From an uncultured Candidatus Saccharibacteria bacterium (GTDB lineage: Bacteria; Patescibacteriota; Minisyncoccia; Phycocordibacterales; UBA9973): a stretch of 64,000 nucleotides of DNA. A program made the translations under genes and the position numbers. The stretch lies in the NCBI GenBank assembly GCA_964553015.1, contig CAZKJE010000002.1:14175-78174 (forward strand), given 5' to 3'. This document shows positions 8,566-11,500 of the stretch, piece after piece. The notes below the pieces were generated by a model. It saw only the letters and a list, made by a program, of their open reading frames with translations. It made no database searches and was not told the DNA's origin. Each line of letters starts with the position of its first letter. Position 1 is the first letter of the stretch.

Positions 8566-11500
8566 AGTATTTAAAAAAATATTGGTATTGGGTTCGGGAG
8601 CCTTAAAGATCGGCGAAGCGGGAGAATTTGATTATTCCGGCAGCCAAGCCATCAAGGCGCTCAAGGAAGAAAAAGTAAAAGTAATTTTAGTAAACCCAAA
8701 CATCGCAACTTTCCAGACTTCAAAAACTTTTGCCGATGAAGTTTATTTTCTGCCGATAAACGAATATTTTGTGGAAAAAGTTATCAAAAAAGAACGTCCA
8801 GACGGTATCTGCCTTTCTTTCGGTGGACAAACTGCTCTGAACTGCGGACTTGCCCTAGCAGAGAAGGGAATATTTAAAAAATACAATGTAGAAATTTTAG
8901 GAAGTCCGATTTCTTCGATAGAACTCACCGAAGATAGGGAAAAATTTGCAGAACATTTACGAAGCATACATATTCCCGTACCGCCTTCCGGCAGCGCGAC
9001 TACATTTAAAGAAGCAAAAAAAATTGCGGAAAGAATTGGGTTTCCGCTCATGGTCCGTGCAGCGTTTGCCTTGGGCGGACAGAAGTCCGGTGTGGCAGGC
9101 AGTATGGAAGAGCTTGAAGAAATAGTTGCCGGCGCACTCTCAATCTCTCCGCAGGTTTTGATAGAAAAATATCTGCATCACTATAAAGAAATTGAATATG
9201 AAGTGGTCCGCGATAAATTCGGGAACTGCGTTACGGTGTGCAACATGGAAAATTTAGATCCGCTCGGAATACACACCGGGGATTCTATTGTGGTCGCACC
9301 CAGCCAGACACTAAATAATGATGAATATCATGGTCTTCGAGAGGCCAGCATAAAAATAGTTGAGAGTTTGAAAATAGTCGGAGAATGCAATGTGCAGTAT
9401 GCTTTGAACCCGACCTCTCCCAACCCTCCCCTTGGCAGGGGAGGAGCTCTAGATTATTTCGTCATTGAAGTAAATGCCAGATTGTCGCGATCCAGCGCGC
9501 TTGCCTCCAAGGCTACAGGTTATCCGCTTGCATACGTCGCCGCTAAACTTGCCCTAGGAAAAAGTTTGCTTGAAGTGGAAAATAAAATCACAAAAGTAAC
9601 CCAGAGTTTCTTTGAGCCGGCTCTTGATTACGTCGTCGTAAAAATGCCGAGATGGGATCTGTCTAAATTTGCCGGCGCGGCGGAACAAATAGGGAGCGCC
9701 ATGAAATCTGTCGGCGAAGTGATGGCTATCGGGCGAAGCTTTGAAGAAGCGCTCCAAAAAGCTGTGCGCATGTGCGGAGCCGGGCAGGAGGGAATAACTG
9801 ACAATGGTTTTAGAAATAGCGCAGATTTAAATAAATTCCTAACAGTTCCGACACCGAAAAGAATTTTTGCAGTAGCCGAAAGTATAAAAAAGGGAGTAAG
9901 CCTGAAAAAAATCCATAAAATAACAGGAATTGATTTGTGGTTCTTGTATAGAATAAAAAATATTGTAAATACGGAACAAATATTTACAAAAACTAAGTTA
10001 CTCAATAAAGAAAATTTACTTATTTTAAAGCAAACCGGATTTTCAGACAAAAAAATTGCGAGCCTATCGGGCAAAACTGAATTAGAAATCAGAAAACTGC
10101 GAAAAAAGCTTGGCGTAACACCATACATTTTTGCGATAGACACTCTCGCGGGAGAATTTCCGGCGAAAACTAATTATTTATATCTTACCTATCATGGAGC
10201 GCACCATGACATACAGCCTTCAGGCAAGAATGCGATCATGGTTCTGGGTTCCGGTCCTTATCACATAGGCTCCTCGGTGGAATTTGACTGGTCTTCGGTG
10301 TACACCGCGCTGGCTCTCTCCAAATACGACAAACAATCAATCATAGTAAATTGCAATCCGGAAACCGTGTCTACGGACTATGATATTTCTAACAGGCTGT
10401 ATTTTGAGGATTTATCTTTTGAAACAGTGGCAGACATTTTTGAATTTGAAATGGCTGGTGGAATTATTATTTCTGTAGGCGGACAACGGCCGAACAATCT
10501 TGCGAAAAAGCTTTCGCAGGCTGAATTTAAAATTTTAGGCACAAAGGCGGAGGATATCGACCGCGCGGAAGACAGAAATGCCTTTTCAGCCCTTCTGGAC
10601 AAATTGGAAATTCTCCAGCCGACATGGCAAAGCTTTACTTCTAAAAAGGACGCGGAAAAATTTACCAAAACTGAAGGCTTTCCCGTGTTAGTCCGGCCTT
10701 CGTACGTGCTTTCCGGCGCGGCTATGCGAGTGTGCTACAACAAAGCCCAGCTTCACAATTTTATCGGCAAAGCCGCAGTTCTTTCGCCTCTTCATCCCGT
10801 CACCATATCTAAATATATTGAAAATGCCAAAGAGCTTGAATTTGATGCCGTGGCGCAGGAGGGAAAAATAATGGTGTATGGAATTTCCGAGCATGTGGAA
10901 AACGCAGGAGTGCATTCGGGAGACGCGACAATCGTGTATCCGACCCAGCGCGTGTATGCGTCTACGGAATTTCAATTGCGAGAAATATCTAAAAAAATTG
11001 CACAAGAGCTTTCCATAACCGGTCCTTTTAATATTCAATTTTTAGTAAAAAATAATATACCATATGTCATTGAAGTAAATGTGCGGGCCAGCCGAACTTT
11101 TCCGCTCTTATCCAAAGCTATGAACATAAACTTTCCGGAAATAGCAGTGGACAGCTTTATGGGACGTGCCAAAGTACAAAAAGTTACCTACCCGAGAAGC
11201 GTAGTTGTAAAGTCTCCGCAGTTTTCTTTCTCTAGATTGCTCGGAGCAGACCCGATACTTCGTGTGGAAATGTCTTCCACGGGCGAAGCAGCCTGCTTTG
11301 GCAAGGATTACGATGAGGCTCTTTTAAAATCAATACTTTCCACCAACAAATTTGATTTCAAAAATAAAAATGTGCTGCTTTCTTTGGGCGGGGAGTTAAA
11401 CAAAGCTAAATTCTTAGAAACTGCGCAAATGCTCCATGCTCTCGGCTATACCATCTTTGCCACAGATACAACAGCAGAATTTCTTCAAAAACAAAACGTG

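Follow-up and report, generated by a model that had tools for sequence, protein, structure and literature searches.

A triplex-motif repeat in frame in carB and recG of a Patescibacteria genome segment, with the behaviour of Rickettsia palindromic elements

The carB gene of an uncultured Patescibacteria bacterium (large subunit of carbamoyl-phosphate synthase; 8555..11797, + strand, 1080 aa) lies in a 64-kb stretch of contig CAZKJE010000002.1, the whole of which is called the window here and which has a G+C content of ~42%. It contains, in frame, a short unit of three blocks (9411..9449, + strand, CarB residues about 287-299; nhmmer E=2.4e-6). Along the plus strand this unit consists of a third block CCTCTCCC (9414..9421), the linker AA (9422..9423), a C-arm CCTCCCCT (9425..9432), the loop TGGC (9433..9436) and a G-arm AGGGGAGG (9437..9444) followed by the tail AGC. 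Its minus strand reads CCTCCCC-TGCCAA-GGGGAGGG-TT-GGGAGAGG, and the G-strand 37-mer is GCTCCTCCCCTGCCAAGGGGAGGGTTGGGAGAGGTCG. The hairpin CCTCCCCT-TGGC-AGGGGAGG (9425..9444) has a stem of 8 bp without mismatch and a free energy, as DNA, of -8.7 kcal/mol. The peptide encoded by the element is TSPNPPLGRGGAL.

A second unit is found in recG (47750..49957, - strand; 735 aa from the ATG at 49957, the protein being 100% identical to P0121). It occupies 49481..49514 of the plus strand (nhmmer E=3.1e-5) and is read antisense by the gene, so that the peptide SPALRREGLGEGL comes from the opposite strand. The third block CCCTCCCC(C) (49482..49490) is followed by the linker AA, the C-arm CCCCTCCCT (49493..49501), the loop TCGC and the G-arm AGGGCGGGG (49506..49514). 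An earlier note on this DNA, made from the sequence alone, had proposed that the two elements are homologous and read in opposite orientations, and both proposals are borne out. When the carB 42-mer is aligned locally to both strands of the whole window, its best match other than itself is the recG site, with a score of 34; 30 Markov-shuffled windows averaged 21.5 and did not exceed 25. The stems of 7-8 bp given there are accurate for carB, whereas the recG hairpin (49493..49514) has 9 bp including one mismatch; the stem is perfect in the orthologous recG copy of two related loci (L202 and L203, which lack a table of open reading frames (ORFs) and where the copy was assigned to the gene by hand).

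The window CarB and RecG proteins are 82-88% identical to proteins from metagenome-assembled genomes of Paceibacteria, Nomurabacteria and Minisyncoccia. In a scan of GTDB the closest genome by CarB was 87% identical, and none was nearer. Comparison with other CarB proteins places the extra residues precisely: the alignment with human CPS1 has a gap of exactly 10 residues (PNPPLGRGGA), and that with E. coli CarB has a gap of 8 residues, directly N-terminal to a 20-residue segment, at the junction that the earlier note had named. Its figure of about 10 residues added in frame agrees with the CPS1 gap and with the preserved frame, and shrinks to a net gain of 6 against the nearest orthologs, since the loop has 16 residues in the window and 10 in those proteins (18 nt). 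The short loop NPxPKNGxLD is present in ~70% of the 120 close orthologs surveyed, among them L001 from GTDB and the two nearest proteins, P0001 and P0002 (87-88% identical). It recurs in distant members of the candidate phyla radiation (CPR) and resembles NPKNGR of E. coli. The residues are thus not shared ancestrally by the protein family, a possibility that the earlier note had set against itself; the carB residues are a secondary acquisition, the plain short loop being the ancestral state. The RecG site reads TLFKKNGISNAGF, without the unit, in most orthologs, and the corresponding loop is TLFKKNGISNAGFSYPIY in most of them and TLFKSPALRREGLGEGLSYPIY in the window, a net gain of 4 residues. 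With net gains of 6 residues in CarB and 4 in RecG, the clean insertion previously suggested looks more like partial replacement of a loop, in frame in both genes.

At the same codons, carB of the relative L011 carries GACCCCTCCCCAACCCTCCCCTTCGCAGGGGAGGG, which is plainly homologous to the carB and recG copies of the window. The carB elements of window and L011 are ~91% identical by eye and the flanks ~78%, a similarity no higher than that between other pairs. Recent homologous exchange was considered as the source of the shared element and rejected because the flanks are no closer than in other pairs, which argues against recent transfer of a larger patch. An AlphaFold model of mean predicted local distance difference test (pLDDT) score 65, in which residues 289-297 score <50, places the CarB insert in a coil between two strands and gives weak support to a loop location. 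Palindrome-type inserts within CarB cluster at this one loop, with few others, at residues 4, 420-423 and 478-481. One ortholog (P0004) is a 1455-aa fusion of a CarA-like protein (CPSase_sm_chain + GATase) with CarB.

The unit had been described as a palindromic element. The hairpin is real, and the unit is larger: a hairpin plus a mirror block, three blocks in all. A homopyrimidine block is followed by a linker of 2-3 nt, a homopyrimidine arm, a loop of 4-6 nt and a complementary homopurine arm; on the opposite strand the order is C-arm, loop, G-arm, 2-3 nt and G-block. The outer block mirrors the neighbouring arm and is neither a direct nor an inverted repeat of it. Perfect mirrors number 164 and direct repeats 34, with 33 mirrors expected when arms are permuted between types. 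The position of a single T in the block tracks that of the T in the arm (on the diagonal in 18/21, 18/18, 77/130 and 5/13 cases). In a set of 43 hairpins collected from the window and from 80 CarB loci of relatives (~1.4 Mb of Paceibacteria DNA), the third block is a perfect 7/7 mirror in 24/43 hairpins, as compared with 3/860 random flanks. In the window the mirror match with the C-arm is 7/8 positions by eye and 6/7 in the automated 7-mer test for carB, and 7/7 for recG.

A hairpin with a mirror third block on one strand defines the intrastrand triplex motif class, named BoxC, then PIT elements, then TM/TMECO (Holder et al. 2015, PMC4666352, citing Hoyne et al. 2000). In its general form the motif opens with a C-rich stem; after a loop of 1-6 nt come its G-rich complement, a further short loop and another G-rich block mirroring the first, with stems of at least 6-8 nt and at most one mismatch; the complementary-strand arrangement also counts. 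The window units have this composition, with the mirror matches just given (by eye in the case of carB). A single strand is predicted to be able to fold as a hairpin with the third strand in its groove. Two forms of pairing were considered and rejected: one in which the third block would pair with the G-arm in Watson-Crick fashion, on the ground that direct repeats (34) are much less frequent than mirrors (164), and a pyrimidine-motif (C+.G-C) Hoogsteen strand, which is physically unlikely at neutral pH. A purine-motif reading of the opposite strand would fit better, and the E. coli TM triplex formed in vitro is of the purine-motif kind (PMC4666352). The TMECO motif is CCCTCNCCC-N3-6-GGGNGAGGG-N3-GGGNGAGGG (PMC4666352). 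Strict matches to it occur in six metagenome or viral contigs that also bear the CCTCCCC-type unit but nowhere in the window or the CPR loci, so that the window elements form a separate sequence subfamily within that structural class.

Further copies exist in the window, and in relatives, as the earlier note had anticipated. The window contains at least five units of the three-block type and one plain hairpin; perfect homopyrimidine/homopurine G/C hairpins occur at four places, one of them a tandem pair, against 0.06 expected by chance. The tandem pair lies in tig (trigger factor; 12722..13810, - strand), where two adjacent hairpins and a partial G-block stand in frame at 13249..13314 (+ strand). 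Their cores are CCTTCCCC-GAA-GGGGAAGG (13261..13279) and CCCCTCCC-TCTTG-GGGAGGGG (13282..13302), and the repeat encodes TPPQEGGAPSPSGKAGEE, which is part of the linker joining Trigger_N to Trigger_C. L003, L031 and L019 have this element as well, and its stem shows a single compensatory change, CCTTC(C/T)CC...GG(G/A)GAAGG; it is absent in L001, L039, L004, L009, L011, L048 and L020, where the linker is rich in His and Glu. The window trigger factor (362 aa) matches Pfam Trigger_N and Trigger_C only, no PPIase domain being detected between them.

A four-block nested, palindromic form, TACCCCTACCC-GG-CCTCTCCCT-AAAGT-AGGGGGAGG-AGAA-AGGAGGGGGTA, is located at 2204..2254 (+ strand) in the 5' untranslated region (UTR) of an operon of a small ORF and lexA, and its downstream G-block has a mirror match of 7/7. 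It is present in the window, L044 and L016 and absent at the orthologous site in L001, L039, L033, L012 and L007; several relatives have some other hairpin at the same position. The upstream promoter region (2141..2200) is conserved and common to nine relatives, with, in order, TTATCCACA (DnaA-box consensus), TTGACA, GTGAACGCTCGTTCAC (a GAAC-N4-GTTC LexA/Cheo box) and TATACT. Downstream lie the 66-aa ORF (2279..2479) and lexA (2507..3076, Peptidase_S24), probably an SOS-autoregulated operon.

Another unit, ACCTCACCC-TGCTG-CCCTCTCCT-GTAA-AGGGGAGGG (40756..40798, + strand), is a clean 43-nt insertion in the apical loop of a different structured repeat of ~100 nt. A copy of that host repeat in L022 lacks the 43 nt, and the repeat is multi-copy in L192. 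The host repeat (window 40714..40860; L022 22147..22246, - strand; L192 237..320, 3624..3666 and 4127..4169) is 93-95% identical between window and L022. It has inverted termini (TTCCCCTCTTGAGG...CCTCAAGAGGAGAA), a strong fold (RNA fold z = -5) and no Rfam match, and looks like a second family, similar to miniature inverted-repeat transposable elements; L192 is a low-GC metagenome contig. Finally, the plain G/C hairpin TCTCCCCCT-TCGC-AGGGGGCGA (1100..1121, + strand), which has no third block, is part of the reading frame of a ComM/Mg-chelatase-like ATPase (548..2140), where it falls in the linker joining the ChlI and AAA domains. The linker of ComM-like orthologs is unrelated to it in sequence, and its membership of the family is uncertain. 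The surface loops expected for such inserts correspond to the interdomain linkers of tig and the ComM-like protein and, on a poor model, to the inter-strand coil of CarB. Rfam at gathering thresholds gave only a tmRNA gene (39143..39535, - strand, 119.6 bits) and tRNA-Ile with anticodon TAT (43989..44062, + strand) in the window, and no repeat family; at relaxed thresholds seven repeat-bearing loci gave chance hairpin matches only.

The nearest relative, L001, is syntenic over the first 20 kb and empty at all four comparable sites. The unit is a secondary acquisition at each of carB, recG, tig, the lexA 5' UTR and the structured repeat, as empty sites of this kind show. Iterated nhmmer searching over 1.46 Mb from Paceibacteria recovered 11 significant copies, nine of them inside ORFs or genes (one, in L022, probably a spurious ORF) and in either orientation relative to the host gene. 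L003 has the hairpin CCTTCCCC-TTC-GGGGAAGG in three separate genes. Copies from different genes and species resemble each other more than their flanks do and share >30 nt, including the loop (TTCGCA) and the linker; together with the window copies they form a sequence family and not a chance likeness. Hairpin density is uneven (eight in L003, six in L031, six in the window, none in L001), and among G/C hairpins of the window and the 80 CarB loci the pyrimidine arm comes first in 43 and the purine arm in 2, as compared with 6 and 8 in one Markov simulation.

The coding habit of the Paceibacteria copies is marked. Called ORFs contain 36/43 hairpins and cover 93% of bases, which suggests little or no avoidance of coding DNA. 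None of TAA, TAG and TGA can occur in a homopyrimidine or homopurine arm, whichever strand and frame is read, and 22/36 coding copies are open in all six frames, as against 1/7 intergenic copies and 19% of random segments. The encoded peptides vary with frame and orientation. Hairpin free energies do not differ significantly from those of dinucleotide shuffles (z about -1 to -1.6), because pairing follows from composition alone, and the lack of orientation bias relative to genes argues against a transcription-linked function.

The same protein loops have been filled repeatedly. The CarB loop is expanded in 37/120 orthologs, with at least eight DNA sequence types, some of them not homopurine/homopyrimidine. 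In L015 (7738..7797), P0094 and P0118 another palindrome, CCGACCGAACAGTCGTTCGG (peptide RPTEQSFG), which is not homopurine, occupies this loop. In Microgenomates, long AT-rich palindromic inserts stand there in frame (L066 10844..10978 and L072 10847..10993, for example ...NWKLEIGNS...), and in L072 the palindrome extends the ancestral AATCCAAATCCCAAA with its left arm, which points to palindromes that grew locally in Microgenomates. On an unbootstrapped neighbour-joining tree of CarB the filled state requires 28 changes, compared with 31.9 (minimum 25) with permuted labels; filled loops appear essentially scattered over the tree, and the window is sister to empty alleles. In RecG, the loop type of the window occurs in six orthologs, a second type in nine and a third in two, all scattered on the tree, and trigger factor is patchy in the same manner as RecG and CarB. 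Window and L011 have the same type of carB fill, yet tig of L011 is empty; L003 has tig filled as in the window, but carB of another type. Judged from these alleles, and with L001 empty throughout, character states across carB, tig and genomes are mutually incompatible. Since deletion cannot restore the ancestral loop, repeated gains or very short exchanges are required, and there are ~25-28 apparent independent gain events at the one CarB loop. All filled alleles retain the NPxP start of the ancestral loop, and in L049 a hairpin lies within a CarB loop of unchanged length.

Outside Paceibacteria the unit has another habit. A public metagenome scan with the single bare hairpin sequence CCTCCCCTTNNCAGGGGAGG as query matched at least 120 contigs, with G+C contents of 0.32 to 0.72. 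Among the matches listed, AACCCCTCC(C) directly abuts the hairpin in 81/127 copies with full flanks and stands 8-26 nt away in 25/127, an inverted second unit follows in 50/127, and the 8-26 nt spacers are themselves hairpins with 21 different stem sequences. Among the same matches, 30% of units lie in ORFs of at least 150 aa, compared with 58-71% of random positions. They are located between co-directional or convergent genes without orientation bias. A 77-nt doublet had no BLAST match in 5,426 E. coli genomes or in a phage collection; in plasmids it was found only in six Moraxella plasmids, unannotated in all of them, at a site between narG and narH. A literature search for the literal sequence found nothing. 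The extragenic habit, the placement between gene pairs and the Moraxella site make the unit REP-like in other phyla. An IMG/VR viral contig of 62% G+C (L236, 3288..9837) has six two-hairpin variants (AAAACCTCTCCG-hairpin-CA-CCTCCCCTTGCCAGGGGAGG-CTTT) on one strand within 6.5 kb.

Taken together, the carB feature is probably a dispersed triplex-motif unit of ~36 nt, secondarily acquired, that behaves as near-neutral selfish DNA and is likely to have spread by templated patch replacement. Its stop-free arms would encode Pro, Ser and Leu, then Gly, Arg and Glu. In a compact genome with few intergenic bases, copies could survive where permissive loops at the surface or linkers between domains tolerate added residues, as nearly neutral selfish DNA comparable to Rickettsia palindromic elements. 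The folded structure may stall replication or repair, an ectopic copy then being used as template; alternatively, ectopic conversion may be seeded by microhomology of C-runs and G-runs (for CarB, AACCCnAACCC...GG of its loop). The loop that is ancestral in CarB, AAYCCNAAYCCNAARAAYGGN, is similar to the C-block-AA-C-arm...G portion of the unit. The net gain of 18 nt in carB, the absence of target-site duplication and the unchanged loop length in L049 indicate replacement and not insertion, a dedicated transposase seems less likely than templated patch replacement, and instability around TM motifs (PMC4666352) is in line with such a process.

Several points weigh against this reading. Genome coverage is one 64-kb window, ORF calls are crude (a greedy choice of the longest ORF) and the trees are neighbour-joining and unbootstrapped. 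The third block of carB has one mismatch, no strict TMECO consensus was matched in the window or in 82 Paceibacteria loci, and the E. coli TM triplex formed in vitro has not been detected in vivo (PMC4666352). The copying mechanism is one that we purely infer, and microhomology, convincing for the CarB loop, is weak for recG and tig. Conservation of the element above its flanks, and the compensatory stem change, could reflect selection for function rather than neutrality.

A more specific proposal is that the CarB loop (residues 288-298), the RecG wedge-domain loop and the trigger-factor linker are repeatedly hit across Paceibacteria through targeted, template-directed copying, in which a non-B structure would arise at C-run/G-run proto-sites in the course of replication or repair, or else that the structure is selected in coding DNA. 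This seems possible and is put forward tentatively. On the data available, targeting can hardly be told apart from a purely selective filter acting through a single highly permissive loop. If it is true, targeted copying would be a previously undescribed route by which non-B DNA repeats add residues to essential proteins.

The repeated events at the CarB loop also lend themselves to an origin in place, in which quasi-palindrome template switching extends Pro-Gly proto-palindromes (CCN...GGN) and the likeness among copies is low-complexity convergence. The ~25-28 events at one loop, the ancestral NPxP start in every filled allele, the lack of target-site duplications, the unchanged loop length in L049 and the L072 palindrome of Microgenomates, AT-rich and with its left arm equal to the ancestral AATCCAAATCCCAAA, are all compatible with it. 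Template switching, however, yields inverted repeats and cannot yield a mirror repeat. The >30 nt common to copies across genes and species, loop TTCGCA and linker included, the presence of the unit in intergenic DNA of many phyla and the clean 43-nt insertion in a noncoding repeat are likewise difficult to accommodate, and such an origin is unlikely.

Movement as single-stranded DNA, the unit being the substrate of a hairpin-recognising HUH/Y1 transposase as in REP/REPIN-RAYT systems, appears somewhat less probable again. The full-length form in other phyla is a REPIN-like inverted doublet, placed between co-directional or convergent genes and without orientation bias, and Y1_Tnp-like genes are present in 8/80 CarB loci and, in L202, beside recG (Pfam 29 bits, cutoff 23). 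These genes, though, are bracketed by other palindromes (ACTTGGAC-ATCCGAT-GTCCAAGT, CCCCGAGGG-TTC-CCCTCGGGG and GGAGCTTAGCTCC) and not by the C/G-block unit. The 64-kb window has no Y1_Tnp-like gene, L033 and L007 have one with no units nearby, the score with the NCBIfam RAYT model is 19.6 where the cutoff is 80, the tags GTAG and CGTC are both missing, and in E. coli no link of the motif to mobile elements or transposons was found (PMC4666352).

The Paceibacteria Y1_Tnp genes are themselves RAYT-like (L031 1623..2320; L033 6711..7381; L007 14152..14867; L202 3100..4000; L106 50..810). They often lie ~3 kb upstream of carA-carB, each between copies of its own palindrome. The arrangement is of the classical REP-RAYT type, here in CPR, with repeats unrelated to the carB unit.

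Least probable, and very doubtful, is a selected cis-acting structure, whether it serves protein binding, signals in replication or repair, or makes translation pause, that is useful rather than selfish: the element is more conserved than its synonymous-saturated flanks, the tig orthologs show one compensatory stem change, third blocks and linker hairpins covary and the unit is conserved across phyla, but L001, the closest relative, is empty at all four comparable sites and so dispenses with it, copies are read by their host genes from one strand or the other, some have decayed (the mismatched stem in recG; tig of L019) and neither promoter nor terminator activity was found for the E. coli motif (PMC4666352).

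With these copies the BoxC/PIT/TM non-B repeats, a class that is little understood, extend to the candidate phyla radiation and into essential coding sequences, where none had been seen in E. coli. If the selfish reading is correct, selfish palindromic DNA written into proteins has a second independent case after Rickettsia. The compositional cause, stop-free homopyrimidine/homopurine arms, is testable. The apparent gains at one CarB loop, at least 25, offer a natural system for the study of targeting and of loop evolution in streamlined genomes. In CPR proteins such inserts account for numerous differences in length and numerous Pro/Gly stretches of low complexity, and they could mislead alignment, phylogeny and structure prediction.

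Among known systems, other short G/C-rich hairpins share some traits with the unit. Like yeast mitochondrial GC clusters (GC42; PMC4478555), these are G/C-rich hairpins of ~40 nt spreading in a very AT-rich compact genome, with a constrained hairpin, no encoded enzyme and an unresolved mechanism; those clusters, in contrast, belong to an organelle, lie mostly between genes, come with an AG target duplication and lack the three-block mirror design. REP and REPIN sequences (PMC5581495; PMC3733652) are also short G/C-rich hairpins, often in inverted doublets between co-directional or convergent genes. Unlike the present units, REPs lie outside genes, are confined to one genus, begin with the tetranucleotide GTAG or CGTC and flank a single-copy RAYT gene of their own; neither tag occurs in the 127 copies among the matches listed, and the Y1_Tnp-like genes of relatives are flanked by other palindromes. 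On these features the unit is not a REP/RAYT system. Doublets are common in other phyla (50/127 among those matches), whereas Paceibacteria copies are singlets or the nested four-block form and mostly genic.

Rickettsia palindromic elements (PMC10969869) and the units here are both non-autonomous palindromic repeats of small AT-rich genomes, in frame in unrelated housekeeping genes at fold-compatible positions. The Rickettsia elements are about 100-150 bp with a conserved peptide, unlike the units here, which are 35-55 nt; there is no sequence similarity between them, and the homopurine/homopyrimidine mirror architecture is absent from the Rickettsia family. The parallel drawn in the earlier note therefore survives as one of behaviour, in frame and in either orientation, and not of homology, length or peptide. 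Repeated independent hits at one site are not known from those elements.

In structure the unit falls in the BoxC/PIT/TM class. Three homopyrimidine/homopurine blocks lie on one strand with the third mirroring the second, the units are G/C-rich with stems of 7-10 nt, and they are dispersed in multiple copies without strand bias, patchy among close relatives, occur in inverted 'palindromic' doublets and have no known transposase. In E. coli MG1655 the 23 TM copies likewise show no strand bias, and TM presence differs between strains and is associated with local sequence variability (PMC4666352). The class had been described in Proteobacteria and Cyanobacteria as intergenic, always so in E. coli (PMC4666352), in contrast to the in-frame copies here, mostly in essential genes (36/43 hairpins in ORFs). 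The stems are of the CCTCCCC or CCCTCCCC types, unlike those of TMECO, the host belongs to Patescibacteria, and recurrent occupation of the same protein loops is not described for that class. The earlier statement that such a family lacks a formal description stands for CPR, for which no account of in-frame elements of this type was found in an incomplete literature collection, and yields to the BoxC/PIT/TM literature as regards the motif class. The repeat is thus a triplex motif by structure that, in Patescibacteria, behaves like the palindromic elements of Rickettsia.

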